This document shows positions 14,011 to 59,407 of a DNA stretch of 64,000 nt, in pieces. A program made the position numbers and the translations under genes. Position 1 is the first letter of the stretch. Each line of letters opens with the position of its first letter. Source of the stretch: Mobula hypostoma (lineage: Eukaryota); assembly GCF_963921235.1 (NCBI RefSeq), contig NC_086097.1:57290001-57354000 (forward strand). The letters run 5' to 3'. The notes below the pieces were generated by a model. It saw nothing but the letters and a program-made list of their open reading frames with translations. It was not told the DNA's origin and searched no databases.

Positions 14011-14158
14011 CAAACATGAGAAAATCTGCAGATGCTGGAAATCCAACAATGCTGGAGGAACTCAGCAGGCCAGGCAGCTTTTATGGAAAAGAGTAGACAG
14101 TCGATGTTTTGATCCGAGACCCTTCCTCAGGACTGAGAGAGGAGGAGCAAGATGGAAA
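14011..14158 (-). mobile_element. Solo PLE 3' tail with hammerhead-like motif
   Basis: Same terminus as the long PLEs (aaatctgcagatgctgga...gctggaggaactcagcagg). Flanked by AGGATAAGGGA and AGGATAAGAGA. Confidence 0.8.
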
Positions 14159-16000
14159 AGGATAAGAGATTTTTTTGAAAAGCTGAAAGGCTAGCTTGCT
14201 TAAATTTAACACTCTTAACTGTTTTTAAGTGTGTTTATTTTTGTTGTTGATCTTAGATTTTAGAGATGTCTGGCTTATAAGTATTTCTAAATGTAAGAAT
14301 TATTTTATAATCCTTGAAGTAAAATTGCTGTCTTGGAAGCCAGATCTCTTTAATCCAGCCCTGTCTGTTTGTCATGGCATCAGAGGGACAATTCCTCTGC
14401 ATTTCATTGCCTGAGGCTCAGTTACATCTGGACCCTGCCACTTGACACAAGGGTAGAGAGCAAATGGTCTATTTAGTGTAGGCATATGGGGGCAGTGGAT
14501 GTTGACTCTGGGAAGTAGGCTGTGCCTAGGGCAATCTGGGGCAACATTTACCAATTTATAATTGTTTAGAGACTTCACTTTGTGCAATTGGTTTTGGTGA
14601 TTTGCTACATTATCACAGTGACTGTATTCCAAACATGCCGCAATGACCATAAGATCCTTTGAAAATGTTCTAAGGTCAACTGGTGATGTAGTTATTTATT
14701 TCTAATACTGTAATTTTTTTGCAACAAGTTCCAAAATAGCACATACTGTAACTTGCAAATTTTCTTTAATATTGCTGCAGCTGCAAGGGAATGATTCATA
14801 CTAAGTTGCTTGTAAAGAAGTGTCTGTAAAACATACAGCGTGTTACTCATTTTACTGAATGAATGGTTGTCTTGAAATGATCATATTGGTTATTCACGTT
14901 CCATATTCAAGCTCTTCCCTTCAACCTCATAGATTTTATAGAAATATGTTGTTTCTATTTTTACGAGAGATGTAATTGCTTATAAAATAATTATTTGCCT
15001 GAAAAAATGAATATTCAATTTCTAACCTGAAATTTAGATACTTTTCTCACAAAACAAACTGTTTATATTAAAATTCCAGCACCTGCAGTCTTCACTTCTT
15101 GATCACTATATTCATGATTCATGGACATATCATTTGACACCAGTTGTGCCAGCTTTTTTGTGGTTTAGTGTACCAGTCAATATATTATTTTCAGCACTGC
15201 ATAGCATAGCACTGTATAGCAGGCAAGAAAAATCTCTGACCAGTGCTGTTTATATAGTCATAGAAGATCAGTTGACTTTTATTACAATTCTATAAAGATG
15301 CATGCTCTGAAGTGGAGTTGTTTCTGGTTGCAAAAGCCTACATGTGGTAATACAGTTGGTGCTGAAGGCCTCTATGCTGATAGCAAGACTTTTAGACAAA
15401 GTAGTTGTTCCTAGATGCAGTGTGTCTGTTAGCATTGCAGTTGGAATGCAACATAACTGCATGAATGAGCAGAGATATACAGAGCAGGAGAAGCTGTGAA
15501 AGAGAAAGGGAGGACTGTCGGCTAGAAACTATATCTGCCCAGGCAATTCAAAAAGCAAATCTCTTAGGTTGAATCTCTGAGAACATATTGCAAATGGCTT
15601 TAAGGTGACAATGACAATAATTGTTTTATGTCTGACTCATTTCTGGCTGGAACAGGGGATAATTCCAACATCTTGAAATTTGTGATTCTATATTGTGCAT
15701 GGAAAGTCACAATTCTCTTTATTTGAAGTGTTAGTTAATCCTCCTTCTCTCTTGCTAGAGACAGCAGTCAGAGAGTGAATAATCCTTTATTAATAAATCT
15801 GCATATTCCTAGATTGTGTGAAGTGCCGTTAACTCATTCAAATCACCTTTGATTTCCAACTGGTGCTGGACCATAGGTAACACATCATACAAGGTGATTT
15901 TTGGCAGTAATTATGACTCATTTTGTATTTGTCTGCTGTGCAAACAAAATGGTGGATCATGGTGGTGGGGGTTAGCTGTAACAAAGTAGCTGTTGCTTCT

Positions 16001-17489
16001 CAAACAAGAGAAAACCTGCAGATGCTGGAAGTCTGAGCAACACATACAAAATGCTGGAGGAACTCAGCAGGCAGCGTATATGGGGAGAAAAGTACAGAGG
16101 CAGGTGATGGGTGGGCAAGGAGATAAGGTGAGGGAGGGAAAAGGGTATGGGAAATGGTGAAGGGGGGTGGGAGTTGAGAAACATTACCGGAAGTTTGAGA
16201 AATCAATGTTCATGCCATCATGTTGGAGGCTACAGAACAGAATATAAGGTGTTGTTCTTCCAACCTAAGTGTGGCCTCATCACAACAATGGAGGACATTA
16301 TGGATGGACATATGGGAGATCCTGCTTGCTCTGGCGGATGGAGCGTAGATGCTCGGCAAAGCGGTCTCACAATCTACGTCAGGTCACACCAATATACAGG
16401 AGGCCACACCGGGAGCACCAAACACAGTATATGACCCCAACAGGCTCACAACTGAAGTGTTGCCTCTCCTGGAAGGACTATTTAGGGCCCTGAATGGTAG
16501 TGAGGGAGGAGGTGTAGCACCTGTTTTGCTTGCAAGGATAAGTGCCAGGAGGGGCAAATGGACAAGGAAGTTCCGTCGGGAGCGGTCCCTGCTGAAAGCA
16601 GAAAACAGGTGGGAGGGAAAGATGTGCCTGGTGGTGAGATCCTCTTGGACGCGGAGGCTGGTGGAGTGGTAGGTGAGGACAAGAGGAACCCTGGCCCTGG
16701 TAGGGTGGCGGGAGAATGGAGTAAGAGCAGACATGCATGAAATGGAAGAGATGCGGTTGAGGGCAGTGTTGATGGTGGATGAAGGGAAGCCCCTTTCTTT
16801 GAAAAAGGAGACCATCTCCTTCGTTCTAGAATGAAAAGCTTCATCCTGAGAACAGGTGTGGCAGAGACAGAGGAATTGTGAGAAGAGAATGGCATTTTTA
16901 CAAGGTGCAGGGTTGGATGAGGTATAGTCTGGGTAGCTGTGAGAAACTGTGGATTTGTAATGGACATCAGTGGATAAGTTGTCTGTGGAGATAGAGACAG
17001 CAAGATCGAGAAAGGGAAGGGAGGTGTCAGAAATGGACCAGGTGAATTTGAGGGCAGGGTGGAAGTTGGAGGCAAAGTGGAGGAAGCAGCACCAATGCAG
17101 TTGTTGATGTGGCGTAGGAAAAGTGTGGGACGGTCACCAGTGTAGGCTTGGAACATAGACTGTTCCACATAGCTGACAAGCAGGCAGGCATTGCTGGGAC
17201 CCATGCAAGTGCCCATGGCTACCCTTTTGTTGAAGGAAGTGGGAGGAACTAAAGGAGAAATTACTTAGATTGAGTTCAAGTTGCGCTAGGCAGAGGAGAG
17301 TGGTGGTGGAGAGGAACTGGTGCCCAGAAAAAAATTGGAGAACTTTGCGGCCTTCCTGCTGGGGGAATGGGGGGTATAGGGACTGGACATCCATATTAAA
17401 AATAGGATGATTGGGGCTAAATAACTTGAACTCCTTGAAAAGATCAAGAGCGTGTGAGGTGTCACATATATAAGTAGCTTGTTTTAGCG
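16001..17489 (-). mobile_element. 5'-truncated Penelope-like retroelement (RT plus GIY-YIG remnants)
   Basis: Minus peptides MGTCMGPSNACLLVSYVEQSMF and FKERGFPSSTI...RVPLVLTYH. TSD AGCTGTTGCTTCT at 15988-16000 and 17490-17502. Confidence 0.9.
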
Positions 17490-18465
17490 AGCTGTTGCTT
17501 CTGTTGCGTAGCTGCACAGAAATGTCAACTATGTCACAAGGTGAAATCTGATAGAACAGAGCATTGATCTACTGAAATTCTCAGTTTCACTGATACCCAG
17601 CAAGAGTTGACAGTGCATCAGGATTCAAGATGCTATTTTTCCAGGGGTTACGGTGTTCCTTTATGCAAAGCTTGACTCTAGATACTGGTTTTTTCCTCCC
17701 TTAATGCCCATTAACTTCAATTTCACCAGGGCCTCCTTATGTCACACTCTAGTCCCCTTCACTCTTAAGCCCAAATTTTGACTAAAGCTGTACTGAACTC
17801 TGAAATTATTTAGTCCTGATTAAACCAAAATGGAGCTTTATGTTGTGGATAGTAGGGGAATAAGTACTGCTTGATAATTGCGATCACAGAACGAAAAATG
17901 TAAAGAAGAATTTTTTAAGGAAATTGTAGTGGTAACTTCATTACAGCAATATATGTTCATCATTGTGATTTATAGCTCCTTACATACTGAAGATGCATTA
18001 ACATCTAATTTGCCTTTCCCTAACCAAGGAGTGCTTAGTCTTGCAATTTCTTACTGCTGTTGCAATTAACACCTGCTATTCTAATACAGAACCATAAGTG
18101 AATTGTTGACTATCTTCTAGTTTCCTGTACCAAAGGGACGGATTACACCTGAACCTGAGAGTGACCAATTTCCTTCCTGGCAGGTTTGTTACAGCTGTTG
18201 GGTAGGGTTTACTAAATTGGCAGAGGGATGGGAACCACAGTGATAGAGCTGAGGATGGAGTGGATGGGGCAGTTGAGGCAGTGTGCAGTGAGACTGTCAG
18301 GAAGGACAGGCAGATGATGGGGCAAAATTGCAGTCAGTGGGATGAATTGCAGTGTAACATGGGGAGAACATCTAAAAGAGTGTTGAATACAGGACTGAAG
18401 TGTTAAGCTTGAATGCACACAGTATATGGAATAAGGTATATGATCTAAGCTTGGTAGGTATGATG

Positions 18466-18587
18466 AAGGGTCTCGGCCTGAAACGTCGACTGCGCCTCTT
18501 CCTATAGATGCTGCTTGGCCTGCTGCGTTCACCAGCAACTTTGATGTGTGTTGCTTGAATTTCCAGCATCTGCAGAATTCCTGTTGT
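18466..18587 (+). mobile_element. Solo PLE 3' tail (younger subfamily) beginning at the hammerhead core
   Basis: tgatgaagggtctcggcctgaaacgtcgac...ctgttgtttg. 15-bp duplication TTGGTAGGTATGATG at 18451-18465 and 18588-18602. Confidence 0.85.
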
Positions 18588-18614
18588 TTGGTAGGTATGA
18601 TGTTGTGGGCATAC

Positions 18615-19252
18615 TGATCAATTTCAAGTTCCTGGGTGTTAATATCTCGGAGGACCTAACCTGGTCCCAACATATTGATTCCGCTATAAAGAAAGCAAGA
18701 AAGTGGCTCTATTTCCTTTGGAATTTGAGAAAATCTGATATGTCACCTAAAACACTTGGAAATTTCTACAGATGAACCATTGAGAACATTCTCATGGGCT
18801 GCATCACCATCTGGATGGGGGTGGGTGTGTCTACCACATAGCATCGAAATTGATCAGAGTCAGCTACATCAAGGGTACTAGCCTCTATAGTATCCAAGAC
18901 ATGCAAACATCTTCAAGGAGCGGTGCCTCAAAAAGGCGGCGTCCATCAAGGACCCCCACCACTCTGGACGTGCCCTTTTCTCACTGTTACCATCAGGAAG
19001 GAGGTGCAGAAGCCTGAAGGCACACACTCAGCGATTCAGGAACAGCTTCTTCCCCTCTGCCATTCAATTTCTGAAGGACATTGAACTCAATAACACTACT
19101 TCACGCCTTTGTTTTTACTCTTTTTGCACTAATTATTTGATACTTACTGTAATTCACAGTTATTTCCCTCTATTGTTATGTATTGCATTGAACTGCTGCT
19201 GCAAAGTTAACAAATTCCATGACATATGCTGGTGATATTAAACCTGATTCTG
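18615..19252 (+). mobile_element. Rex1/Babar-like LINE 3' fragment
   Basis: Peptide FKFLGVNISEDLTWSQHIDSAIKKARKWLYFL; tail aaacctgattctg. Confidence 0.7.
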
Positions 19253-23387: not shown

Positions 23388-26123
23388 CGGTGGATTCCAG
23401 TTAATTGGGACACATGGGACCAGTACATTTTGGCCTCGTTAAGTGCTGCCCCAATTAGCTGTAGTTTCATGGAAATAGTTAAAAAGGTATAAAAACAAGA
23501 GAAACTACTGTTTAACTGAGTAACAAATTATGTATTTATATGAAATATAGAACAAATTGGGACACTACCAACAAGATGGTGGTTGTCCGTCATATCCAAC
23601 GATGACAGGAAATCTGTGTGGGAGAGTTTTAAAAGTAGACAAGCTGGAGCATTGCACTCTCTCAACCTTGGAAGTCCAGGTCTGGTGTTATGAGTAGATG
23701 TCACAACTGGCATCTTCCCTGGTTGCAGTGGATGACTATGACTGTTTCTGTGGCTTGTGCCTTCGCTCTCCATGTAATGTTGTAGAACCACCTTCCTGGC
23801 CATTGGTTCTCACTGTAGATCTTATCTGCTCAGTCTGCTGGAGCTCAGTTTGCATTCTAAGACAGGCATGTCTGTCCTTATCTCACTGGGGTATGAGACC
23901 CACCAGCTACCTTCACCTGGTTTGGCCTGCCTCTTGAAGTGGTGTAGTAGGGTGAGGCACTGTCATATGCACACAGCCATTTGGAGCCACAGATGAGAGC
24001 TGAGTGTCTGGTGAAGACCAAAGGTGACATTCAGGATGATTGTCAATACACCCTATCCTCGTTATATGTGTCTTCAGACAATGCGGATTCACAGTTATGC
24101 GAGGAACCTATTTCTACCAACCTCTCGTTATATGTGTCCAAAACTCAGTTATGCGAGGAGCACTGCTTTCCCGCCAATACAAGTCATGTGTGCACGCCTC
24201 TCAGTCTCACTCCCGCCAGTCTCGCATTGGTTTTGGCAACGCGTGGATGTGCGATCTTGCGCTCTTAAACTTTTGTGTTTTTACCTATGGTGCAGTGATT
24301 TTGTGCTTGAAATATTTAACTATGCCTCCTAAGCGTCCGATGTCAAGTCCTGGGCCATCAGCCAAGCGGCAGAGAACCGCTTTAACACTTGGAAAAAAAG
24401 TTGGAAATTATAAACAGGGTGGCGTCAGGTGAAGGTAACACAGCTCTGGGACGCTACCCTGTGCAGTTGCAGGCTATGATAGCTGAGTTAGGCATCACAC
24501 CAAAGCAGGTGTTTAATGCAGATGAAACCGGGCTTTTTTGGAAGCGTATGCTGAAACGCCACTTAACATAAGTAAGGATAAAAAAACTGCATCAGTCTTC
24601 AAGGCAGCAAACGATTGACTTTGCTTATGTGTTCCAATGCCGAAGGAGACTGTAAGATGAAGCCTCTCTTAGTTTACCGTTCACTAAACCCCCGTGCTCT
24701 TAAGGGCTTGAGTAAGAATATGCTTCCTGCCCATTGGGCAGCTAACAAGAAAGCATGGGTCACTGGTCAAATCTTTGAAGATTGGTTTGCTAATCATTTT
24801 GCTGTTAAAGATCTTTTGTTGCTTGACAATGCGCCAGCCCATCCTAAACGTTTGGACAGCATTCATCCTAACATAACAGTGCGTTTCCTGCTGCCTAACG
24901 CAACATCGTTCGACCAAAGTGTGATATCCACAGGCGTATTTTTTACGGCGAACTGTCTTTCAGATGCTGCAAGCAACAGATGATTTTGAAAATCCCGGTA
25001 GTTTACCAACAGTGAGGGAATGGTGGAAGTCCTTCAACATCAGACATGCCATCAACAACATTGATGAATCATGGAAGAAGGTCAGGTCTTCCACTCTGAA
25101 GCGACTGGCAGAATTTTTCAGGCTGCGGAACACTTGGCACAAATGGCGATGGACATGGACCCAAGTCTAGAACGGAGTCAGCATTTCAGTCCTTCCCTGC
25201 AGTCAAGCCTTCTTCCCTACAAGCAAATTTATGCTGAAAAACAAAATGCTGCCAAGCAAACAATTCTCACCACTTTCTTCAAACCGGTGTCATCTCCTGC
25301 TGCCAGCAGTACTGAGAGTTTTGTGAGTCTTCCTTCACCCCTTGCTGTCCTTGATGATCCTGACGACACAGGACCATCCACCATATCAATGTAAAGCTGC
25401 CTGACACCACAACAACCACTCACCTTCCAGAGCGAACACACCTGCCACTGTTGGTGAGTGCTGTACACCCTAGTATGTTAACTTTCTATGATTTATTATG
25501 TTGAATATTACCTTAAATTGATTAAATATAATACGAATGTTGCCTTGTGGTACTGCTTTTGTGTCGTATTGGTATGAAAATGTGAATAAATTACAGATAA
25601 AACATGTTTAGGAAGCCCTCAAGAACGCATCCCTATTTTCTCCATTTAAATAATTATTCACATTATGCGTCGACTTTGAGGAAAGTATCCCCCGCATATA
25701 ATGAGGATAGGGTGTATCTTCAAATTCTTCGTACTCCTAACTTGTTGAAGTAGAGAAATCATTTCATTTTAACCCCATGCCATTCCTGGTATTTCCAAGT
25801 CTGAATCTTGAAACTGCAGTGAGCAAAGCAGATCTGAATTGTCTTGCTGCTTACTTCTTGCCAACTATCAATGACAAAAATTACATTTTTAAACACAAAC
25901 ACACTCAGCTGACTCTATTTCAAAACTGTTCGCTCTAAGCATGATGTACGACTGACGCTTGTTGGAAGCCATTTGGCAAATCTGCTGTCCCAATTAAGCA
26001 GAGTAGTATCCCAAATAAACAAAGGAAATCCCAGCTATTTTATCGATTAGGTTTCGTTCTTTGAATTATCCCAAATAAGCGGCTGCTCGATTAACTGAAG
26101 GCTCAATTAACTGGAATCCACTG
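23388..26123 (+). mobile_element. MITE family A copy expanded by two nested insertions
   Basis: TA|CGGTGGATTCCAGTTAATTGGG ... CAATTAACTGGAATCCACTG|TA. Outer parts align with 561-1462. Confidence 0.8.
24049..25714 (+). mobile_element. Tigger1/TIGD1-like pogo transposon with frameshifted, deleted transposase
   Basis: TA|CACCCTATCCTCGTTATATG ... CATATAATGAGGATAGGGTG|TA. Peptides KKLEIINRVASGE, QVFNADETGLFWKRM, KPLLVYRSLNPRALKG, NKKAWVT, LLLLDNAPAHP. Confidence 0.92.
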
Positions 26124-26906: not shown

Positions 26907-29383
26907 GTATGGAGGTATATACAGTTATGATCTTTACTATGTGTGGAATTCTTTAAGTATGTTTTGTATTTTCATAAAAAATAAAAACTAGGTAGCTGTT
27001 ATCCACTATTTTTGTTACTTTCATCTTTACAGCGTAGGAGCTGAATATGATTTCATCAGTGGGAATAACATTTAAAATGTTAATTAGTCAAAGAAAAATG
27101 TCAGTAAAAATGTGTTTCCTTTCCTCCACTAAGATTCTACACTTCCTTTCCTGTTTCAACCACATGCTAAATTTCAAGCTTATATTAATGGATAATGAAC
27201 TAGGATCAAGAACCTACCAAGTATTTCCCTTTGCAGTGAAATGTTCAATTGCCTCAGCCCAACCTCTGGATTTTTCCTGCTCAATGTCCTTACAGATGTG
27301 TAATCATTTAAGGTGTTGATTGAAATCTATCTTTGATCAATCTTTTCTTTGTCATCTCTATAGCTGCCTCCTTTTTTGGTCTTGGTGCCCAAACTTGCTG
27401 AGATGAAACAGGGACGTTTTACAATATTTACAGTTTTGTATGGCTCAGATGTTCACTGGACTTATTTACTGAGCCATCTGCTGGGCATGACAGACCAAAT
27501 AGTTAAAGCAAAATACTGCAGCATTTTGCCTAACCTAAATCTGGAATTTTTTGTGGATGCTTGTAATATAATTGAAACTATTTTTATGAGATTAGGCTCA
27601 ACTCTGGCCCCCAAAAAGAGCAGACATTTACTTTCATTGCTGAGTTGAAATGTTGTGCTCACTAAAATTCAAATTCTACCTAAGGGAAAAGAAATCAACT
27701 TTGTTTTTACATTATTCATCGCTATAGAATGAAAAAAATTGAACCCACCTAGGAATAAACTAGAAGTTCTGAATGTTGAAAGAATCCATTTTGCAGTACT
27801 ATAGCTTGTGGGTTTTGCAGTGAATTTTGAGTAATATGACCTGCCCATGAAGTAATCTGCAGTTCCAACAAAGGTTTGCTTCAAAAACAAGATCGAGAAA
27901 TATAAAAACATCTTGTAATTTTTTAAAGTCCGGAACTCAAGCTCATAATTCTTTACATACATATGGTTATTGTAGCTTTGTATTTGCTGGACACATTCTA
28001 AAATAATTTCTCTAATTGTATTGAGTTTTGTCTTGCGCTTTGACTTGCAAATATTTTAGGGTTCTATTTATTGTCTGATGGAAGCACTTTTTCTTTGGCA
28101 GTTATGACAATGGAGAAAAATGCTACATCCATCCCTACCGGGTAATTTCGTTAAGCTTTGTTTGAAATCTCAGAACACAGAAACACACATGACTGTCATA
28201 CAGAATTAAATTCAATTCTGAAAGAATCCATTTTTTCTGCAGAATTATTCAGGATAATTTCATTTTTCATTACATTTATTTTAATTTGCTTGGCTTTTGC
28301 TGGTACCCTGAAACGTGATACAGCATATTGTCTAGATTTGTATATTGCCACCACCTAAGTTTCATTTATGCAGATAGAGTGTGATGAGTGTCGTAGAGCT
28401 AGCGGATGGCTTCAGACAGACAATCTGTTTGATGCTTAGATATACAGCATATATCCACAAAATGTTTTTCGTGACTGAAGTGTAATGTGATATGCAGGAC
28501 TTAAAACCTGGATTCACTGACTGATGAACCATTTAACATGCAGTAAGTAAATTGTGTATAGAGGATTGCAAGGCACATTTTAGTCTGTTATTGGAAACTG
28601 CTTCCAACTGAGTGGAAATTCCCCTGAGGCAAAAGCTGTTTACTATTTGCAGGGGAATTGAAAGTGCTGATTTCAATCAGATTTCCACAGCAATACACTG
28701 ATGCCTCTGGATTTCTTGTATCGAAAAACAAATGAACAGAAAAAGGCAGGCAACAATATTGCAGTTAAATATTTTGTTGCCTACAACTGGCTTGGTAAAA
28801 TTACATTAAATACAACTAAAAACTTAGGTAAATAATCAGTTTCAAAGAGATAATTGAATGTAAATTGTTGGGAATGCAGCCTAAATACTATTTTTAGTAT
28901 GCATGTTTTCTCACATTTTTATATTCTTTCCTCTCCATAGAACATTGAATACCGTTTCTATAGGAACCAGACATGTGCTCTGAGCTTCAATGAGCTTTTC
29001 AGTTGTAATGGGGGCACTCCATCACTGAATCTCATTGGGTATCCACTCACATTAAATTCCAACAGGAGTTGCTTGATAACCATTAAAATAAGAATCATGG
29101 TCAATTTCCAAACCTCTCATTATTTAGATTTTCAAGCTACTGGCATCTTGTAAATCTTTAAGATAAAATACAGACACCACAGATTTTAGTAGCTAAACTT
29201 TCCATGTAATTGAAAAAAAACACTTGCTTTTCTAATTGACCCAGAATTATTGAAGGAAACAACTAGTCTTGGCAGGGTGTGTATTCAGTATTTCAATGTA
29301 TACAACTCAAAGGTGACAAACTACATAAATGGTTAATTCCTTGGTACAAGTTATACTGTAACTGCAATTGAATACCAATCAAT

Positions 29384-31675
29384 TGCTGGAGGAACTCAGC
29401 AAGTGGCGTAGCATATATGGAGGGGCATAAACAGTTGATGTTTCCAGCTGAGACCCTTCATCGGACAGGGAAGGAAGGAGGCAGAAGCTAGAATAATGAT
29501 GTGGGGGGGAGAGGAAGGAGTAGATAGATGAGACAAGGTGAGGGGAAATGTGTGGGTGGAGGGGGGCGGTATGAAGTAAGAAGCTGGGAAGGGATAAATG
29601 AAAGAGGTAAAGGACTGAAGAAGAAGGAATCTAATAGAAACAGTGGTCTTTGGAAGAAAGGAAAGGAGGAACGGAACCAGAGAGAAGTGATGGGCAGGTG
29701 ACAAGAGGAGTGGTGAGAGGGGAACCAGAATGGGAAATGGAAGAAGAGAGAAGAAGAGAGGGGGGAGAAATTGTCAAAATTAGAGAAATCAATATCCATG
29801 CCATCGGGTTGGAGGCTACACAAATGGTATTGCTCCTCCAACTTGAATTTGGCCTCATTGTGGTAGTAGAGGAGGCCATTGATTAATGTGTCAAAATGGG
29901 AATGGGAAGTCGAATTGAAATGGGTAGCCACTGGGAGATCCTGCCTCTTGAGGTGGGCAGAGCAAAGACAATTGACAAAGCAGTCCCCCAGTCTATATCG
30001 GGTCTCACTGATGTAAAGGAAACCACACTAGGAGTACCAGATACAATAGACATTCCTGACAGACTAACAGATGAAGTGACGCATCTCCTGAAAGAACTAT
30101 CTGAGACTATTTGGGGATCTAAATGGTGGTGTGGGAAGAGGTGTAGGGGCAGGCAAAGCACTTGTTACATTTGTTAGGATGAAGATCTGTTAGGAGGGAT
30201 GAGCGGGCAAGGGAATCCCTAAGTGGGGAGGGGAAAGATGTGCTTAGTGGTAGGATTCCGTGCTGTAGATGGTGGAAGATATGGAGAATGATGTGCTGGA
30301 TATAATGAGGCTTGTGGAGCGGTAGGTGAGGACATGACGAACCCTATCTCTGATTTGATAATGGGAGGATGGAATGATGATAGATCTGTGGGAAATGGAA
30401 GAGATGCAGGTGAGTGCAGCATTGATGATGGTGGAAGCGAAACACTGTTCTTTGAAAAATAGAGGTCATACTAGATGTTACAGAATGGAAATCCTCATCC
30501 TGAGAACAGATCCAGCAGAGACTAAGGAAATGAGAAAAGGGAATAGCATTTTTACAAGTGACGGGGTAGGAGGAGGTATAGATAAGATAATAGAGACAGT
30601 CGGTAGATTTGTAAAAGATGTTAGTGGATAGCCTGTTTCCAGAGATGGAGACAGAGATTGAGAAAAGGGAGAGAAATGTCAGAGATAAACCAAGTATATC
30701 TGAGTACAGACAGTGTTAATGTTGGTGAAACTGACGAGCTCAGGAAGCAGCACCAGTGCAGTCCACTGTAGTGGAGAAAAAGTTGGGGGGCATTGCTAGT
30801 GTAAGCTTGGAACATGGGCAGTTCACTGTTGCTAACAAAAGAGCTGGCATTGCTAGGATCCATGTGAGTGCCCATGGCTATAGCTCTGGCTTAGAGAAAT
30901 TAGGAGGCACTGTAAGAGAAATTGTTGAGGTTAAGATCCAGTTCTGCCAGATGGGTGGTAAGGTTTGTTCTTCTGAAAGAGGTGGGTAGATTTAAGGCCT
31001 TGTGGATGGGGGGGGGGTGGTGGAAGTGTATAGGGTCTGGGCCTCCATGGTGAAAAGAAGGCCAGGAAACTGAAAGTTATTGAAGTGATGGAGAGCATGT
31101 GAAGTGTAGGTTAGATGGTATTGAACCAAGGGGGACAAAATTGAGATGAGGTATGTAGACATGAGTTCAGTGGGGCAGAAGCAGGCAAAAACAATGACCT
31201 TACTGGGACAGTCAGGTTTGTGGATCTTGAGTAGGAGATAGAAATGAGCAGTGTAGTGTATGAGAATTTTGAGGTTTGTGACAATGGATGTGAGATCTAC
31301 AGAGGCAATGAGGTTGATGATAGTGTGGGAAAAATGGCCTGGTACTCCTTGGTGGAGTCCTGTGCAAAAGGTAAGCAAGACAAGTCTGAGAGCTACTGCC
31401 TGGTCACAGAGAGGTAGAGGTTAGTCCACCAGACCATTTTAGCAAGAGACGCTACTGACAACACCACTCTTGTCCGTGGGTGTGGTGGTGAGGTTGGGAT
31501 TGGCACACAGTGAGTGGAGGGCAATGCGTTCATAAGGAGGTGAGGTTAGAATAGATGAGAGGAGTAGTGATGTTGAGACGGTTAAAGTCTCATCGGTAGT
31601 TAGAGATGAGAAGATCCAGAGCAGGGTGTCCAAGAAGACAAAGAGGGTTGAAAATGGGGCTGGGTTTAACTGGAC
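29384..31675 (-). mobile_element. Older Penelope-like element (RT, GIY-YIG, 3' UTR)
   Basis: Peptides FYLLLKIHKPDCP, MGTHMDPSNAS and ATHFNSTSHS...KLEEQ...LQPDGMDIDFSNF; shared terminus. Confidence 0.85.
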
Positions 31676-32391: not shown

Positions 32392-34665
32392 TGGCAACAC
32401 ATACAAAATGCTGGAGGAACTCAGCAGGCCAGCCAGCATCTATGGGAAAAAGCACAGTTGACGTCTTGGGCCGAAACCCTTCGGCAGGACTGGAGAAAAA
32501 AAAGCTGAGGAGTAGATTTGAAAGGTTGGGGGTAGGGAGAGAGAAACACCAGGTGATAGGTGAAACTTGGAGTGGGAGGGATGAAGCAAAGAGCCAGAAA
32601 GTTGATTGGTGAAAGAGACAGAGGCCATGGAAGAAAGAAAAAGGGTGGGAAGAGGAGGAGCACCAGAGAGAGGCGATAGGTGGGCAAGGAGACAACATGA
32701 GAGAGGGAAAGGGGATGGGAAATGGTGAAGGGGGGGAGGCATTACTGGAAGTTTGAGAAATCGATGTTCATGCCATCAGGTTGGAGGCTACCCAAACGGA
32801 ATATAAGATGTTGTTCCTCCAATCTAAATGTGACCTTATCACGACAGTGGAGAAGGCCATGGATGGGCATATCGGAATGGGAATAGGAAATGGAATTAAA
32901 ATGGGTGGCCACTGGGAGATCCCGCTTTTTCTGGTGGATGGAACATTGATGCTCGGCAAACTGGTTTCCCAATCTACGTTGGATCTCACCAATATACAGG
33001 AGTCCACACCTGGAGCATCGAACACGGTATATGACCCCAACAGACTCACAGGTGAAGTGTCACCTCACATGGAAGGATTGTTTAGGGCCCTGAATGGTAG
33101 TGAGGGAGGAGGTGTGGGGGCAGGTGAGTAGCACTTGCTCTGCTTGCAAGGATAGGTGCCAGGATGGAGATCAGTGGGGAGGATTGAATGGACAAGGGAG
33201 TCGCATAGGGAGCGATCCCTGCAGAAAGCAGAAAGTTGGGGGGCTGGAGGGAAAGTCGTGTTTGGTGGTGGGATCCAGTTGGAGGTGGCGGAAGTTTCGG
33301 AGAATTATGTACTGGGCGTTGAAGCTGATGAGGTGGTAGGTGAGGACAAGAGGAACCCTATCTCTGGTAGGGTGGCAGGATGATGGGGTAAGAGCAGACA
33401 TGCATGAAATGGAAGGGATGTGGTTGAGGGCAGCATTGATGGTGGACGAAGGGAAGCCCCTTTCTTTGAAAAAGGGGGACTTCTCCTTTGTTCTAGAATT
33501 GAGAAAAGGGGTGGTGTTTTTACAAGTACCAGAGTAGGATGAGATATAGTCCAGGTAGCTGTGAGAATCTGTAGGTTTATAATAAACACCAGTGGATAAG
33601 CTGTCTCCGGAGATAGAGACACTGAGATCAAGAAAGGGAAAGGAAGTGCCAGAAATGGACCAGGAGAATTTGAGGGCAGGTGGAAGTTGGAGGCAAAGTG
33701 GATGAAATCGATGAGTTGAGTATGGGTGCAGGAAACAGCACTAACGCTGTTGTTGATGTAGCGTAGGAAAAGTGCAGGATGGTCACCAGAGTAGGCCTGG
33801 AACATAGACTGTTTCATGTAGCTGACAAACAGGCAGGCATAGCTGGGACCCATGTGAGTGCCCAGAGCTACTCCTTTTGTTTGAAGGAAGCGAGAGGCTA
33901 AAAGAGAAATTATTTAGAGTGAGGACAAGTTCCGCTAAACTGAGGAGAGTGGTAGTGGAGGGGGACTGGTTGGGTCTGGTGTCTAGAAAGAAACGAAGTC
34001 TTAGAGGCCTTCCTGGTGGGGGATGGATGTGTATAGGAACTGGATATCCTTAGTAAAAATAAGATGATGGGGGCCAGAGAACTTGAAATCCCTGAAAAGA
34101 TCAAGAGACTGTGAAGTGTCACAGATGTAGGTAGGAAGGGCCTGAACTGGGGGGAATAAGATAGAGTCGATATATGCAGATATGAGTTCAGTGGGGCAGG
34201 AATAAGCTGAAACAATGGGTCTACCTGGACAAGCGGGTTTATGGATCTTGGGTAGGAGGTAGAAAAGGGAGGTGCGGGGTGCGGGAACTATGAGGTTGGT
34301 GGCAGTGGATGGGTGAACCCCAGAGTCAATAAGGTTGGTGATGGTGTGGGAGACAATGGCCTGGTGTTCCTTCGTGGGGTCCTGTTCGAGAGGTAAGTTA
34401 GAGGATGTGTCTGGGAGTTGGCACTGGGCCTCAGCAAGGCAGAGGTCAGTATGCCAGACGACTACAGTACCTCCCTTATCTGCGGGTTTGATGGTGAGGT
34501 TAGGATTAGTGTGAAGGGAGTGCAGAACCAAGCATGCGGAAGGAGTGAGGTTGGAATAGGAGAGAGGAGTGTTAAAGTCTAGATGGTTAATCTTCCATCG
34601 GCATTCTTCCAGCATTTTGTGTGTGTTGCTCGGATTTCCGGCATCTACAGATTTTCTCTTGTTTG
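32392..34665 (-). mobile_element. Penelope-like element (Neptune-like) with an inverted terminal copy at its 5' junction
   Basis: Peptides TIKPADKGG, FYLLPKIHKPACPGRPIVS, MGPSYACLFV and RLEEQHLIFRLGSLQPDGMNIDFSNF. TSD TGAAAGAGTTTT at 32380-32391 and 34666-34677. Confidence 0.93.
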
Positions 34666-36334: not shown

Positions 36335-38030
36335 CGGAAATAAGCACAGAAAATGCAGGAGACAATCATCAGGGCGGGCAACAAGAGAAACAGTTAGTAT
36401 TTCAGATTAAAGTTCCTTTGTCATAACTGGGAAAGAAATAAAATACATTAGTTTTCAGTAGCAGGGAAGGCGGGGGAGGAATAAACAAGGAGAATATCCA
36501 TGTGGAGACAAGGCCAGGATTGATGTGGCGAGAAGTTGTAAACAAGTTTTTGTGGTCAATAGGTTAATGTGTGCAGCTAGTGAGAGAGAACATGAGCAAA
36601 GGAACAGGAAAGCTACGAAATGAGGCAGTTAGTAATAATACAAACAATTGAGTATAAGTTGCTGCAAAATGTAGGTTTGTTGATCATGCCTAGAAGTTCT
36701 GGTTGAAGGTAAGGTGGAGAGAATAAAATTTACCTGATATCTTATAGATGGCCTGTTGTGGTACAGACAGAAAATAAATTACTTGAAGTTGTAGGATCTG
36801 TATTATGTTTATTAGCACTGACATATGTTGTGGAATTTGTTGTTTTGCAGCAGCAGTACAGTGCATTATAAGATAGTGAGCAAAATGGTGAGATAGTGTT
36901 CAGAAATTTGATGGTGGGTGCAAAGCTGCTCTTTCTAAACTATCAAGTGTGTGTATTTAGGCTCTTGTAGCTTCCTCTCTAGTAGTAATGAGAAGATGGT
37001 GTGTCCTGGATGGTGAGCAACTATTGAGTCCAGCAATTATTGCCCAGAGGATGAGGTGCTGTTCCCCAAGGTTATCTTGAATCTTGTAGAATTGCAGAAG
37101 GCCACAGACACTTATAGGACAAGGTATTAGTGAATGGAGGATGAAAGTGGCAGACAAAAGGAAGCTCTTGGTCATTGCTATGGACTGAATACAGATACTG
37201 CATAAAGCAATCAGCCAGTCTCAATATATTGCCTTCTGTACATTGGAGAAAAGAATACAAAGACTGAATGTGGTACTCTAGACTCTAGAGTCCAACTAAA
37301 TTGTTGCTTCACCTGGAAAGAAAATTTGGGTTCCTGGATCTTGAGAAGAGGTGAATGATAGGTGTTGGATCTTCTATGATTCCATGGGTAAATAACATGA
37401 AATGACAATGCCAGATAGAAATAAAAGCATAGGAAAAGGAGTCACAAAGGGACTGATCCTTTTGAAATGCTGAGAGAGGTCACGAGAGGAATATGTGTAT
37501 ACAGCATAAAGCAATTTTGTTGGAGCTGGCAGAAATTGTGAAAGATCTATTGAATGCAGAAGGTGATGAGACTAGTAATCTCTGTTCTGTCCCGGAGGAG
37601 AGGAAGTAAGACTGGGGTTGCAGAAGATGGTTGAGACAAATCCAGGACTCTGGTAAAGGGAAAACCACAGATCTGAAAGGAGGAAGATATCTCAGAGTTA
37701 CCTGTGTGGAAAGTTTTATCATTAGAGCAAATACAAATGATAAAGGAATTGGGAGAATGAAATGGACTCATGGGAGAAGGTAGTGTTGGAGAAGTATCCA
37801 AATGCTAGCTGTGGAGAATTGTAGACTTGTAATGGACGTATGTTGCCAGTCTATTCCCTGAGATCAAAATGGAGAATCCAGAATAGGAAGGAAAGGGTCA
37901 TGGCTTGTTCCCTGTTCCAAGTAAGAGCAGAGTGGAAATTGCCAGCAAAAGTAATGAAAATTTTTAAGCTCTCTGATTGAGCTTGAAGAAGATTGAAATA
38001 AAGACAATGGAGAGTGCGGATGCTGTCATC
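36335..38030 (-). mobile_element. Highly decayed PLE, with a Rex-like tail inserted at about 36800-37015
   Basis: Residual similarity to PLE RT/EN DNA and the peptide LGEQHLI. Confidence 0.55.
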
Positions 38031-38034
38031 TGGA

Positions 38035-38910
38035 GCATCACACAAAATTCTGGAGGAACTCAGCAGGTCAGTTGTGTCTTTGCTGGAAAATGCACAGTCG
38101 ATGTTTGGGTCAAGACCCTTGATGTAGACCAGGGGTTCTCCAACCTGGGGTCCATGGACCTCTCAGTTAATGGGAGGGCTCCATGGTATATAAAAGGTTG
38201 GGAACCCCTGATCTAGACTGAAACATAGTTGGAAGTTGTCCAGTAAAAGGAAATAGAGAGAAGAGTTTGAGCAAGAGCTGGTAGGCGATAGGAAGATCCT
38301 TGTGAAGAGGGTGATAGGCAGATAAAGTGGTGGGGGCGGGGGCGTAGAAGAATGGGAATAGTGTGAGAAGGTGAGAGGTGATTGATATGCGGGAGTGACA
38401 AAGGATTGAAGATGATGGACTCTGATAAGAGAGGAAGGTGAAGCATGGAATAAAGGGAGGGAGTTGACACAGTTAGAGGGGAGTAGTGGGGAAGGGGAGC
38501 CACTGGAGGAGTGTGTGAATGATGTACAAATGGGGAAGCTGTGGAGGAGAAAGAGACAGTACTAGAGTGGGGAAGAGAAAAGGGATAGATGTTTCTTTCA
38601 CTGTCTTCCCCCCCCCCACACCCTCTCCCATCTTCACATTAAGTACACACACCTCCCATTGGTTTCCCTCCCCATCTTCTTCCTTCTCTTCTCTCCAACT
38701 TCCCTCTCTTTATTCCATACTTCACCACTCCATCATTCTCATGCCCCCACCTGGATCCACCTATTACATGCCAGCTCTTGCTCCATTCTCCTATTCATAC
38801 TGGCTTTCTCCCCTTTATCTTTCACTCTAGGTGAAGAGTTTCAATGCAAAGCATCAAATGTCCATTTCTCTCCATAGAAGCTGCCTAAATTGCACTAATG
38901 TTTTGTGTTG
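38035..38910. mobile_element. Head-to-head pair of PLE 3' tails
   Basis: Minus tail begins cacacaaaattctggaggaactcagcagg. Purine-rich sequence switches to pyrimidine-rich near 38590. Plus tail ends ttttgtgttg. Confidence 0.6.
38130..38210. mobile_element. 81-bp hAT (Charlie-type) MITE
   Basis: CAGGGGTTCTCCAACCT ... AGGTTGGGAACCCCTG with 8-bp TSD ATGTAGAC / ATCTAGAC. Confidence 0.85.
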
Positions 38911-38999
38911 AACAAGGACAAGGTTAGCTTGGTCCACATCCTTGCTGATAGAATCATAGAACATTACCGCATGGAAGCGGGGGCTTTGGCCCATCTAGT

Positions 39000-44175: not shown

Positions 44176-44472
44176 TGTCCAACTCAAAGACAAAAATACT
44201 GCAGTAAGTGCTGCAGGTGAAAGAGGTCAAGACACAGCTGAATGGAGTATTAACATTTTGGGTCAATATTTTGTCCAATTAACATTAACTGTACCTTCAG
44301 ATGATGCCTGTTGAGTTTCTTCCGCACTCTCTGTCTTAATTTCTGAGTTCCGACATCTGCAGCTGTGTACTTAGTTACAAACTTTAAAATTCACAAGGCA
44401 TCTATTCACATCTGTAATTTATCCTCCAGCTATTTGTCAGTTAAAAGAAAATAAATATGATTATATTATTAT

Positions 44473-47080
44473 AAACAAGAGAAAATCTGCAGATGCTGGA
44501 AATCCGAGCAACACACACAAAATGCTGGAGGAACTCAGCAGGCCAGGCAGCATCTATGGAAAAAGTACAGTTGACGTTTCCGGCTGAAACCCTTTCGCAG
44601 AACTGGAGAAAAAAGCTGAGAAATAGATTTGAAAGGTGGTGTTGGGGGGGGGAGGTGAAGGAGAGAGAGAACCACCAGATGATAGGTGAAACCTGGAGGG
44701 GGAGAGATGAAGTGAAGAGCTGGGAAGTTGATTGGTGAGATGAGGTGAGAGAGGGAAGGGGGATGGGAAATGGAGAAGGTGGGGGGAGTATTACTGGAAG
44801 CTTGAGAAATCGATGTTCAGGCTACCCAAATGGAATATAATGTGTTGTTCCTCCAACCTAAGTGTAGCCTCATCACGACAGTGGAGGAGATCATGGATGG
44901 ACATATCGGAATGGGAATGGGAAGTGGAATTAAAATGGGTGGCCACTAGTAATCCTGCTTGTTCTGGCGTACAAAGCGTAGATGCTCAGCAAGGCAGTGT
45001 CCCAGTCTATGTCGGGTCTCACCGATGTACGGGAAGCCACACCGGGAGCACCGAACACAGTAAATCACCCCAGCAGACTCACAGGTGAAGTGTTGCCTCA
45101 ACTGAAGGACTGTTTAGGGCCTTGGATGGTAGTGACGGAGGAGGTGTAGGGGCAGGTGTAGCACTTGTTCCGCTTGCAAGAATAAGTGCAGGAGGGAGAT
45201 CAGTCGGGAGGGACAAATGGACAAGGTAGTTGCATAGGGAGCGATCCCTGCGGAAAGCAGAAAGTGGAGGGGGGAGTTTGGTGGGGAGGGAAAGATGTGC
45301 TTGGTGGTGGGATTCTGTTGGAAATAGTGAAAGTTTCGGAGAATTATGTGCTGAACGCGGAGGCTGGTGGGGGGTGGGTGAGGACAAGAGGAACTCTAAC
45401 CCTAGTCGGATGGCAAGAGGAGAGGGTAAGAGCAGATGTGCATGAAATGGAACATATATGGTTATCCACTGATGTCTATTACAAACCCAAGGACATGCTC
45501 TTGATCTTTTCAAGGATTTCAAGTTCCTTGGCCCCCGTCATCTCATTTTCACTTTGAGTATCCAATCCCTCTACACCTCCATCCCCCACCAGGAAGGCCT
45601 CAAAGCTCTCTGTTTTTTCTGGACACCAGAGCTAACCAGTTCCTCTCCACCACTACAACACAAGCTGACTTGTCCTCACTCTAAATAATTTCTCTTTTGG
45701 CTTCTCCCACTTCCTTCAAACAAAAGAGGTAGTCAGGGGCACTCGCATGGGTCCCAGCTGTGCCTGACTGTTTGTCAGCTACGTGAAACAATCTATGTTC
45801 CAGGCCTGCTCTGGCGACTGTCCCACACTTTTCCTATGCTACATCAACGAAAGCATTGGTGCTACTTCCTGCACCCATGCTGAACTCGTCAACGTCATTC
45901 ACTTTGCTTCCAACTTGCACCCCGCCCTCAAATTCACCTGCTCCATTTCTGGCACTTCCCTTCCCTTTCTCGATCTCACTGTCTCTATCTCTGGAGACAG
46001 CTTATCCACCGATGTCTATTACAAACCCATGGATTCTCACAGCTACTTAGACTACACCTTGTCCCACCCTACTACTTGTAGCAACGCCATCCCCTTTTCT
46101 CAATTCCTCCATCTCCACTGTATTTACTTGCAGGATAGAACGAAGGAGATGTCCTCCTTTTTCAAGGAAAGGGCTTCCCTTCCTCCACCATCAATGCTGC
46201 CCTCATCCGCATCACTTCTATTTCATGCATGTCTGCACTTACCCCATCGTCCTGCCATCCTACCAGGTACAGGGTTCCTCTTGTCTTCACCTACCACCCC
46301 ACTAACCTCCGGGTCCTAAACTTACACCACCTCCAATGGGATCCCACTACCAAGCACGTCTCCCCTCCCTACCTCCACCCCCCCCCCACTTTCTGCGTGA
46401 TCCCCTTGTCCATTCGTCCTTCCCCACCAATCTCCCTCCTGGCACTTATCCATTCAAGCAGAATAAGTGCTACACCTGCTCCCTCACTACCATCCAGGAC
46501 CCTAAACAGTCCTTCCAGGTGAGGTGGCACTTCATGTATGAGTCTGTTGGGGTAATTTTCTGTGATCATTGCTCCCAGTGTGGCCTCCTGTACATTGGTG
46601 AGACTTGATGTAGGCTGGGAGACCGCTTTGCCAAGCATCTATCCTCCATCCGCTAGAACAAGATGTAGCATGAACATAGATTTCTCCAACTTCTGATAAT
46701 TTTTTCCGCTCCGCCTTCCCACTTTTTCTCTCTGGCCTCTCTTCTGCTCACCAACCTGTTATCTCCCTTTGGTGCCCATCCTCCTTTCTTTTCTCCCATG
46801 ATCAATGCTTCTCTCATATCACATTCCTTCTTCTCCAACCCCTTACTTTTTCCACCCATCACCTCCCAGCTTCTTACGTAATTTCCCTTCCCTCACCTAT
46901 CTGGCTTCTATGCCCTTTTAGCTTGTTCTCCTTCCCCTCCCCCTACCTCCTTAATTTGGCTTCTTCCTGTTTCCTTGACAATCTTGAAGAAGGGTCTTGG
47001 GCCAAAACATCAGCTGTTTATTCATTTCCTGAGATGCTGCCAGACCTGCTGAGTACCTCCAGAAGTTTGTGTGTGTTGCA
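44473..47080. mobile_element. Large head-to-head PLE insertion: minus arm 44473-45452, plus arm about 45462-47080
   Basis: Both arms end in the PLE terminus facing outward. The plus arm encodes LKFT..LPFLD..STDVYYKPMDSHSYLDY and CGLLYIGET (GIY-YIG). Confidence 0.9.
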
Positions 47081-56019: not shown

Positions 56020-57010
56020 CACACCCTTCTTCTGGCACTTCCTTTCACAGTACTTGTCCTTTTGCGTTTTCTCTTTCCATCACCCATGTATCCAAACAGT
56101 CGTTACAGGTGAAGCAGAGATTCTCATGCATTTTTTTTTGCAATCTAGTGCCCTGCATTTAATATCCACAGTGTTGTCTCTATTACATTGAAGAAACTAA
56201 ATGCCAATTGGGTAATTGCCCCTGTGGTCAGTCCTCAGGGGTGACGGTGAGCTTCCTGTAATCTGTCACTTCAATTCGCATCTCACACTCACTCTGACTT
56301 GCTGATCTGTGGTCTCCTGTCCTTTTATAATGAAGTCCCATGACAGTTTGAAGAACACTACTTCTTCTTCTGTTCTTCACCTTTCCATCTCACCACTCCC
56401 CTCATTATTCAGACTCATCATCCTCACCCACCTGAATCCATCTGTTCAGCACCTATATAGTCATTTTACATTGCATCTTGTTGTCTTCCTGCACTGCACT
56501 TTCTTTGTAACTGTAATACTTTATTCTGCACTCTGTTATTATTTTACCTTGTACTTCCTCAAAGCACAGTTGTAATTAATTGTCTGTATAAATGGTATAC
56601 TAGAAAAGTTTTTCACCATACCTCAGTGCATGTGATAATAATAAACCACTTTAGCAATTTACCTGGGATTCTTCTCTCAGTTCACCTTTCATGCCCATCA
56701 TCCTTCCTTCATTTAGTTTCATCCACCACCTACAAGTTCCTGTCTCTACCGTCTGCCTCCCTCACCCTGAACCATCTGTCCACTGTTTCCCTTTCATCTG
56801 GTTCCACCTGTAACCTACCAGCCTCTATCCCACTCCACCCTCTTACTTCAATATACTCGCTCTCTTCTTTCCACACAGTGTCCTGATGCAAAGTCTCATA
56901 TTGAAACATCAACTTTCCCTTTGTCTCTACAGATGCTGCCTGAGCTGCTGAGTTCTTCCAGCATTTAACTTTTTGCTTTCAGTTACAACATCTGCTATCT
57001 CGTGTATCTC
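56020..57010 (+). mobile_element. Old PLE 3' part (GIY-YIG remnant, UTR, hammerhead-like motif)
   Basis: caggtgaagcagagattc, tacattgaagaaactaa, tcctgatgcaaagtctcatattgaaacatc and ctgctgagttcttccagcattt. Confidence 0.65.
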
Positions 57011-57232
57011 CTGTCTTAATTTTTTCTGTATCAGTTCCCTATCTGTGATATTAGCTCATCTTATTTGTGTATTTTCACCTCATTTGTCATTTTTCTTCCT
57101 CTCTGGGAGTGGGCGACAAGCCCGGCTTATACACATGGGCATGTCTTCCTGTTTGTTCCTCCATTTTACTCTGCCACATTATTGTCTATCTAACTAACTG
57201 CATCTATCTCTCAATGACCAGATGACGTAATG

Positions 57233-57438
57233 CAGTGGTCCCCAACCTCCGGGCTGCGGACCGATAGATTGCCGCGAAGAATGACTCGGAACGCACCCAG
57301 CACATCTTTAAGAATTAATTAACTTGTTTATTTTGGCTTTTTTCTTAAGGATGTGCTGGGTGTGTTGTGAGTACCGCTGCACCACTGCATTCTTCGCGGC
57401 GATATGTCGGTCCGCGGCCCAGAGGTTGGGGATCACTG
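57233..57438. mobile_element. Palindromic hAT MITE
   Basis: CAGTGGTCCCCAACCT ... AGGTTGGGGATCACTG with perfect 8-bp TSD ACGTAATG and internal inverted arms. Confidence 0.9.
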
Positions 57439-58964
57439 ACGTAATGTGTGAGCTTATCCCCACACCTCTTGCCAATGCTTAAGAAGTTTCTTTAGTCTCC
57501 TTCTCAGTTCTGATGAAAGATCTTCAACCTAATTTGTTAAGTTTGTTTCTCTTCCCACAGATGTGGACTGACCTGCTGAGTGTTTCCTGCACTTACTGTT
57601 TTTAGATTTTCTGCATTTTTGAATTTTCAAATAAATGTACTCTGGTTTCCTTCCACAGTCCAAAGACATACCAGTTAGTAGGTTAATTAGTCATTGAATA
57701 TTGTCCTGTGATTTCTCTAGGGTTAAATCGGTGGGTTTCTGGGCATTGGGGCTTGTAGGACCAAAAGGGCCTGTTACACAGTTTCTATAAAAATAAAATA
57801 AAGTCAGGCAATGCATTTCTTAGCAAGGAAAAAAATTAATATTGAATGGTAGTACAAGTATCCCACCTACACCTTAGACTGAGAAATGGATGAGGATGGG
57901 TACTAATTAGGAGGTGGGGATTCTTACTATTGGCAAAAATATTTAACAGGATCAGCCACATACAGATGACTCTGCGTGCAGGTTAGAAGCTGGGTATCTG
58001 CAGCAAATGCTTGACTCGCCAAATTTGCCAAAAATTTTCCATAATCCCCAAGGCAAATGTCAAGTGTGCAATAGACTATTCTTCACCTCCAACAACACTC
58101 AAGAACCACAAGACCACTGAAAACAAAACTCCTTTTAGAAAAAAGTACCCTCAGTTCCTCTAATCTCTCCCATATTCATGTGTTTCCCAATCTTCTTTCT
58201 TGAGAGATCATTGAAAATGTTTGCTTCAAATTAAATTTCTATTTGACTTCCATCCAGCCTGTGGAATTGAAACTGAGCCTAACAATGCCATAAATTACAT
58301 TCTTTGCAACTGTAATTAGTTATCTTAATGTATTCTACTCAATTTCTGTGCCTATGACACCATAAACAAATAGTAGAAACACTAATATTTGTACATTGCC
58401 TTTCACTGCCTCTCAAAGTCCCAAAACTCTTTACAGCTAATAAATTACATTTATTTGAAATGATATCTCCTTGGGAAGGCCCACAAATGGGAGGGAATGC
58501 AGAAATAGGCCATTGTGCCAACTAATCTATGCAGGTGTTTGCACCCCATTACATTTTCCTCATTTCAGACTAGCAGAATCAATGAAAGATCGCCCAACTT
58601 GAGTGTTCAACCAGAGTGCAGAAGACAACAAACTGTAAACACTAAATAAATAAACAAACAAACAAACAAGCAAGCAAGCAATAAATCTGGAGAACATAGA
58701 TGAAGAGCGCTTGAAAGATAGTCCATTGGTTGTGGGAACATTTCAATGATGGGGCAAGTGAGGTTAAGTGAAGTAATCCCCTTTGATTCAAGAGCCTGAT
58801 AGTTGAGGGATAGTAATTGTTCTGAGCCTGGTGGTGTGACTCCTGAAGCTTCTGTACCTTCTTCTTGATGGCAGCAGCGAGAAGAACACGTCCTGGGTGG
58901 TGGGGGTCCCTGATGACGGATCCTGCTTTCCTGCGACATTGTTTCATGTAGATGTGCTCAGTGG

Positions 58965-59407
58965 TTGATCCTGTTCCATGATCCTCTCATATCCCTTTTG
59001 CCAATCACCTGTCCAGCTCTTGGCTCCATCCCTCCCCCTCCTGTCTTCTCCTATCATTTTGGATCTCCCCCTCCCCCTCCCACTTTCAAATCTCTTACTA
59101 GCTCTTCCTTCAGTTAGTCCTGACAAAGGGTCTCGGCCCGAAACGTCGACTGTACCTCTTCCTAGAGATGCTGCTTGGCCTGCTGCATTCACCAGCAACT
59201 TCGATGTGTGCAGAAGGAGTTGTAGTGAGAGGGACAGAGGGAGAAAAAAGAGAAAGAGAAACAAAGGGGGAAAAATAATATATATATAAATAAAAATAAG
59301 TAAGTAAGTAAGTAAGGGATGGGATACGAGGGGGAGGTGGGGCATTAACGGAAGTTAGAGAAATCAATGTTCATGCCAACAGGTTGGAGGCTACCCAGAC
59401 GGAATAA
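58965..59407. mobile_element. Young PLE 3' region with internal inversion (plus 58965-59210, minus 59211-59407)
   Basis: The plus arm carries the same tail as 18466-18587. The minus arm carries the ORF end (gtctgggtagcctccaacctg...catgaacattgatttctc). Confidence 0.8.
59116..59151 (+). ncRNA. Minimal type I hammerhead ribozyme motif in a PLE tail (this copy has CUGACAA in place of CUGANGA)
   Basis: AGTC-CTGACAA-AGGGTCTCGGCCC-GAAAC-GTC-GACT: stem I AGTC/GACT, stem II hairpin, GAAA box, GUC site. Confidence 0.7.

Follow-up and report, generated by a model that had tools for sequence, protein, structure and literature searches.

Decayed minimal hammerhead motifs in the pseudo-LTRs of Neptune-like Penelope-like elements in Mobula hypostoma

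Based on the comparisons below, we propose that a motif recurring in a 64,000-nucleotide stretch of the Mobula hypostoma genome (contig NC_086097.1, positions 57,290,001 to 57,354,000 of the forward strand; hereafter the window, whose own numbering is used throughout) represents dead copies of a minimal type I hammerhead ribozyme (min-HHR) in the pseudo-long terminal repeat (pseudo-LTR) of an abundant Neptune-like Penelope-like element (PLE). We put the probability of this reading at about 0.9. In register, the motif covers 38 columns: a 5-bp stem I, CUGANGA, one extra A, a 4-bp stem II capped by a four-base loop, then GAAA followed by C, G, U and C, and finally the 3' strand of stem I. The extra base, which lies between A9 and 10.1, is A in 10 of 10 copies. 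As a first-pass annotation of the window had stated, the layout is GAAA-CG-UC without a loop III and contains the palindromic ACGU; this 4-nt palindrome (15.2-16.2; ACGT in the DNA) is retained in 4 of the 10 copies that had been annotated, and because no loop separates 15.2 from 16.2, a single motif cannot form stem III. The annotation's assignment to the hammerhead core holds as well, the motif agreeing feature by feature with the published min-HHR consensus, in PLE pseudo-LTRs.

The motif, its copies and their decay

All ten annotated loci bear the motif on the strand named for them, with coordinates that agree to 1-2 bases. A profile of motif plus tail gave 16 matches in the window at E<=1, 15 of which reach E<=1.3e-4, and it adds to the ten loci two decayed motif copies, a third that is barely recognisable and two tails without a motif. 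The motif copies are as follows.

59115..59152, plus strand: best-kept min-HHR copy; 11/12 core bases, both stems whole, G8 reads A (attributed to CpG decay); predicted cut after 59147
18461..18589, plus strand: 5'-truncated insertion; begins at U4 of the motif (18461-18492) and reaches the long tail end
14098..14135, minus strand: min-HHR copy; 11/12 core (G12 lost), palindrome broken, tail to ~14012, upstream without coding sequence
32455..32492, minus strand: min-HHR copy; 9/12 core (A6C, G12A, A14G), UUCG loop, 250 nt behind an endonuclease stop
44568..44605, minus strand: min-HHR copy; 10/12 core (A6C, G8A), same subfamily as 32455
29432..29468, minus strand: min-HHR copy from an older subfamily; lacks U4, palindrome broken
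46979..47016, plus strand: min-HHR copy; 10/12 core, palindrome broken
56878..56915, plus strand: old min-HHR copy; 11/12 core, stems decayed to 3/5 and 2/4 pairs
57505..57543, plus strand: old min-HHR copy; 9/12 core, GAAA decayed
38095..38220, minus strand: min-HHR copy split by an insertion; 8/12 core
36391..36429, minus strand: additional old copy; 9/12 core, stem I whole, U-A closing pair
38823..38860, plus strand: additional heavily decayed copy, in a pseudo-LTR inverted relative to the 38095 element
near 44255-44292, plus strand: additional, barely recognisable copy, found as a profile match

A degenerate 27-letter pattern with at most three mismatches matched five times in the window and in none of 100 shuffles; as it was derived from the window copies themselves, it demonstrates repetition only. 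With a strict min-HHR descriptor, for which the estimated chance of the layout is ~4e-10 per site, the window contained no intact copy and one copy at a single core mismatch (59120-59147), a level not reached in 20 window shuffles. The annotation had also claimed that each copy carries a lesion, and the ten copies indeed retain 8-11 of the 12 core bases, none of them all 12. Its further claim that the consensus rebuilds an intact core stands, since the plurality of the window copies restores the 12 core bases. The stems are not cleanly rebuilt by the plurality: position 1.1 is A in 6 and G in 4 of 10 copies, and position 16.2 is tied 5:5. These two positions are settled only because CpG decay is allowed for or outside data are used.

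Outside the window, an intact majority core is carried by the family in public contigs of two organisms. Of four public runs aligned on 59050-59225 at a likeness of 80%, two were contig sets, each from a different organism, and contributed 24,420 and 65,981 records; the raw-read runs X21 and X22 contributed none. At position 59125, G makes up 87% and 83% of the depth, restoring the G8 that reads A in the window copy; N7 is C in 85-89%, the C and G of the palindrome hold in 87-91%, and position 11.1 is U in 33-36%, so that G10.1-U11.1 occurs in about a third, all of these figures being contig depth, which is not copy number, from an alignment that favours query-like sequences and leaves some X5 differences uncounted. 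Ten motif places vary at >=4%, all in CpG pairs, and they range from 7-15% except for 59125, the lesion of the window copy, and 11.1. In both contig runs, the largest two piles of loose ends among the places listed are at 59116 and 59153, the motif borders; we read these piles, with differing letters beyond them, as other subfamilies that have the motif and not the flanks in common. Of the loose-end places, 434 fall outside the listing; none of the 12 within it lies at the predicted cut site. In metagenomes, the long pattern gave 0 loci and the short pattern five, none with core, stem I or tail, which we took as chance matches.

The lesions in the window follow CpG. Across the ten copies, changes from the majority form affect 28 of 79 CpG cells and 35 of the 273 remaining cells (p=2e-5; both classes exclude N7 and G8); C>T or G>A accounts for 26 of the 28. 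Among non-CpG cells, the core is not better kept than the rest of the motif (10/89 changed vs 26/185, p=0.57). CpG-focused lesions and a core no better kept are the pattern expected of unselected, methylated copies, i.e. of neutral decay. Most likely, the copies in this window do nothing.

Two loci have features of their own. The 5' arm of stem I is missing from the 18461 copy, owing to a 5' truncation that lies within a 15-nt target duplication (18451-18465 and 18588-18602). The plus-strand interval 18451-18602 as a whole is a 130-nt insert with a clean 15-nt target duplication, the last five bases of which equal the first five of the insert. The core of the 38095 copy is interrupted by the following element.

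38130..38210, no strand assigned: 81-nt inverted-repeat element with 16-nt terminal inverted repeats (15/16 match) and an 8-nt target duplication (7/8 match)

This insertion presumably resembles a hAT-type miniature inverted-repeat transposable element, and an end similar-looking to its own is present near 57410-57440. Two pseudo-LTRs stand back to back in the surrounding interval 37996-38892, with an inverted match of 72% between 38437-38560 and 38600-38726; both terminate in a decayed motif, and these two motifs occupy opposite strands ~600 nt apart.

The host element

The PLEs that carry the motif copies are dead, 5'-truncated and Neptune-like, and within them the motif lies in the 3' pseudo-LTR, in sense orientation. 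Four of 12 copies (29432, 32455, 44568 and 46979) lie 3' of PLE coding sequence on the same strand, the remaining ones being accompanied by pseudo-LTR or tail only. A 5' pseudo-LTR in direct orientation is absent from all elements in the window, and because every PLE copy is 5'-truncated, the start of the reading frame was not found. The larger PLE pieces are listed here.

32394..34600, minus strand: longest PLE body; 5'-truncated, broken open reading frame (ORF), pseudo-LTR, motif, short tail end
34601..34664, plus strand: inverted piece with tail only, adjoining the 32394-34600 element at its 5' end, found as a profile match
44473..45463, minus strand: 5'-truncated PLE; has the C-x4-C-x2-C linker, an endonuclease, the motif and the long tail end
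45493..47079, plus strand: PLE head to head with 44473-45463; putative reverse transcriptase (RT) with thumb, endonuclease with a partial deletion, then pseudo-LTR, motif and short tail end
29334..31596, minus strand: older PLE body with the 29432 motif; ~70% like the others over the endonuclease end
16002..17477, minus strand: PLE body with the motif deleted; pseudo-LTR minus ~210 nt including the whole motif, tail 16002-16097

The broken ORF of the longest element, which ends at 32742, has a DKG motif, a putative RT, a Cys linker and a GIY-YIG endonuclease at 32742-33059. By translation, the DKG motif and a decayed catalytic motif of the putative RT are seen in broken frames, and a CxxC and two His are visible in the endonuclease. 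The last 105 codons of this ORF resemble GIY-YIG clusters of the Atlas at 0.95 (PF01541 on 17-42% of members), and the 45768-46316 piece is matched at 0.96 by HTH_animal clusters, of which one carries RVT_1 on 17% of its members; these Atlas matches are feature look-alikes and not alignments. The C-x4-C-x2-C linker of the 44473-45463 element fits the CX2-5CxxC linker between RT and endonuclease that marks Neptune and Nematis PLEs (PMC8557442).

The tails fall into lengths. Among 13 tails including the reference, three end 61-65 nt and seven 98-100 nt behind the predicted cut, with three old ones in between; the 35-nt difference corresponds to the optional 30-40-nt tail described for PLEs (PMC8557442, PMC11167929). 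Inverted partner pieces are present at 34601, at 45493 against 45463 and at 38437-38726 (around 38580), and inverted 5'-truncated partners are a PLE feature (PMC8557442).

Two junctions were observed besides. The deletion in 16002-16260 (minus strand) has a 3-nt microhomology at its junction and resumes 2 nt behind the predicted cut site; this single case is probably an ordinary deletion or a template jump. At 58990-59406, a plus-strand pseudo-LTR with short tail abuts, tail to tail, a minus-strand piece that comprises the endonuclease end and pseudo-LTR start and passes into simple repeats.

Elsewhere in the window, a search for a host gene in 15 candidate frames gave transposon domains only, plus two weak matches below cut-off. 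Other mobile-element remains lie at 38999-40566 (plus), 60576-63000 (minus), 24582-24983 (plus), 1450-1857 (plus) and 7295-7681 (minus); they comprise reverse transcriptases of the long interspersed nuclear element type (Pfam RVT_1), a piece of a DDE_1 transposase and a CENP-B-type DNA-binding piece, and one further frame looks, on visual inspection alone, like that of a Tc1 transposase. At 2210-2470, a (TA)/(TG) microsatellite block gave the strongest Rfam microRNA matches, all below gathering scores, as low-complexity artefacts.

Folding, a proposed mechanism and competing explanations

In predicted folds, stem II with its tetraloop has pair probabilities of 0.9-1.0 and stem I, which closes both ends, of 0.93-1.0. 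The best monomer structure pairs G5-G8 with C15.2-C17 and reaches -14.5 kcal/mol, compared with -10.5 kcal/mol for the open core, and an A at N7 abolishes this blocking helix. The active dimer (-19.9 kcal/mol) lies above two misfolded monomers (-29.0). All these nearest-neighbour energies omit tertiary contacts and magnesium and are a pointer only. That an inactive monomer is favoured fits the protein-assisted cleavage reported for an anole PLE (PMC11167929).

We suggest the following course of events for the source element. In its tandem transcript, two motifs would swap stem I strands and ACGU would pair with ACGU, nested, building the missing stem III. The paired motifs would then cut after C17 of GUC, slowly and probably only with the element's own protein. 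Reverse transcription may have begun ~60-65 or ~100 nt behind the cut site and would usually have stopped early, leaving solo 3' motifs without a partner. All 12 aligned copies span the predicted cut site and run on into the tail, which argues that the RNA that was copied was uncut, or rejoined, at that motif, and none of the 16 tail matches in the window has its 5' end at this site. If cutting matters, its target would be the upstream motif or separate molecules. A dimer of naked RNA may show little cleavage or none, so a dimer assay with a negative result would not in itself refute the interpretation.

Several results weigh against the interpretation as dead hammerheads of a Neptune-like PLE. 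Scoring with Infernal, which the first-pass annotation had suggested as a check, lent it no support: no Rfam hammerhead family is among 36 matches in the window at E<=5, nor among the four matches in 59060-59220 at E<=10; our guess is that the Rfam models perhaps expect a stem III. Covariation among 11 aligned copies, from which the split 38095 copy was left out, is not above shuffles on four of five measures. Shuffles reached the observed value in 39, 55, 68 and 136 of 500 cases, and in 9 of 500 for cells changed on both sides; changes on both sides occur in 6 of 11 pairs, a value that 39 of 500 shuffles reach, and 11 decayed copies have little power. In the contigs, the lower variation of the motif than of its flanks is not significant (non-CpG places varying at >=4%: 0/28 vs 9/123, p=0.21). 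For the element, the Pfam GIY-YIG match on the endonuclease piece is weak and below cut-off (E=0.089), and the Pfam RT families including RVT_1 do not match the PLE pieces. The energy of the dimer relative to the monomers also belongs here.

If the missing Rfam match and the non-significant covariation are taken at face value, together with a monomer folding z of only ~ -2, the likeness to a hammerhead could be due to chance and the repetition merely reflect a common repeat. We regard this as the least probable of the explanations, and a very remote one: eleven fixed core letters, two stems and the palindrome in order have an estimated chance near 1e-7 per pseudo-LTR and occur at the PLE location known for the motif, and the named pairs hold in 75% of cells vs 14-37% when slid, in a comparison that is favoured by the structure having been drawn from the same copies. 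Nearly as improbable is that some window copies are active or have been co-opted by the host, e.g. when one copy pairs with its neighbour within a transcript of the host. Same-strand neighbours do exist (56878 and 57505, ~630 nt apart; 29432 and 32455, ~3 kb apart), but all four have core or stem lesions and three lack the palindrome; moreover, decay tracks CpG and not function, and no host exon is among the 15 candidate frames scanned.

A more serious alternative, which we consider possible although unlikely, is that the hammerhead-derived motif is retained in this lineage chiefly for protein binding, folding or the start of translation and that cutting is weak and unneeded for jumping. In the Poseidon PLE of the anole, PAc, the hammerhead cut only with the element's protein, core mutants still inserted, with insertion in vitro unaffected, and RNA reads neither started nor stopped at the cut (PMC11167929). 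The blocked monomer that beats the open core by 4 kcal/mol and the 12 copies spanning the cut site point the same way, as does A6C, common to two separate insertions and slow in a phage hammerhead (PMC3088659). However, any copy that has a 3' motif will extend across the cut no matter what happens at the 5' motif, so that the spanning does not discriminate, and A6C is based on two copies. Furthermore, the majority core is complete in the contigs and retained across metazoan PLEs (PMC4209133), as catalytic selection would give.

Relation to known hammerheads and a possible C6 subfamily

The reading of the window copies as dead min-HHRs follows work already in print. Cervera and De la Pena defined min-HHRs in metazoan PLE pseudo-LTRs in 2014, including the dimer model, and the no-loop stem III that needs two motifs was the founding argument of that study, in which single motifs were uncleaved and dimers and trimers cleaved weakly (PMC4209133). 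Its min-HHRs and those of the window have in common type I topology without a loop III, a palindromic 15.2-16.2, the extra base after A9, G10.1-C11.1, a short stem I and mostly solo copies from 5'-truncated PLEs, which in Table S1 as in the window show the 3' motif only; opposite-strand pairs 100-700 bp apart are also present in both (PMC4209133). Stem II of the window family has 4 bp with a CUCG or UUCG loop, in contrast to 7-8 bp in the Schistosoma families, and Fig. S3 rows such as those for Acropora and Nematostella(2) likewise have a 4-bp stem II and C-G-U-C. The family is not among the Fig. S3 rows examined, which include fishes, lamprey, coelacanth, frog and reptiles and no cartilaginous fish (PMC4209133). 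These likenesses support placing the window motif as a further host family within the min-HHR class described in 2014.

A literature search returned no paper on this family, which may be listed in a 2016 dimer paper or in the supplements of a 2026 preprint. The former, by Lunse, Weinberg and Breaker, reportedly describes PLE-associated hammerhead variants that cleave as dimers. According to a review, dimer-cleaving variants have an extremely short palindromic stem III, as does the window motif (PMC6765202). The preprint concerns non-LTR retrozymes, which carry type I hammerheads derived from PLE pseudo-LTRs and are reported from the one cartilaginous fish sampled (bioRxiv 10.64898/2026.07.22.740005). 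Retrozymes are head-to-tail tandem repeats with a whole motif per unit, whereas the window copies are dispersed, single and broken; with no tandem units and none of the dispersed copies whole, the retrozyme reading was rejected.

PAc shares with the window family the pseudo-LTR location of the motif, an optional 30-40-nt tail after it that separates two RT start sites, and insertion from uncut RNA (PMC11167929). By contrast, PAc belongs to the Penelope/Poseidon clade and its ORF starts at stem II (PMC11167929), whereas the window element has the Neptune/Nematis Cys linker. A core start codon of the kind the anole element has found no support in the window, where the frame from the ATG in the 18461 copy stops after 14 codons and no ORF is joined to a 5' pseudo-LTR. 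The cellular role of PLE hammerheads is still unsettled (PMC8557442); the present family, very abundant and divided into several subfamilies, would suit the study of this question, to which the broken copies in the window give no answer.

One such subfamily may be defined by C at position 6. The 32455 and 44568 copies are alike at 88 of 99 positions over motif and tail and have both C6 and the UUCG loop; their tail ends differ and their 3' flanks are unrelated (54%, gapped alignment). A transversion common to two separate insertions points to a C6 source element. Neither A6C nor the UUCG loop reached 4% in the contig alignment on 59050-59225, and the C6 subfamily may be rare or simply not aligned on that query. 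A natural phage hammerhead with A6C has an activity below 0.1 per minute (PMC3088659), and a literature search on A6C in Penelope-like hammerheads gave no match. We speculate, tentatively and with more doubt than conviction, that the C6 subfamily remained mobile despite a weakened core and that the default fold of the main subfamily is a self-blocking one, its core strand paired with the cleavage triplet; the two copies behind the C6 observation are too few to settle this. If true, the C6 lineage would be a natural experiment on whether PLEs need their hammerhead, in which the copy numbers and ages of the A6 and C6 lineages can be compared, and the self-blocking fold would explain why the ribozyme needs the element's protein.

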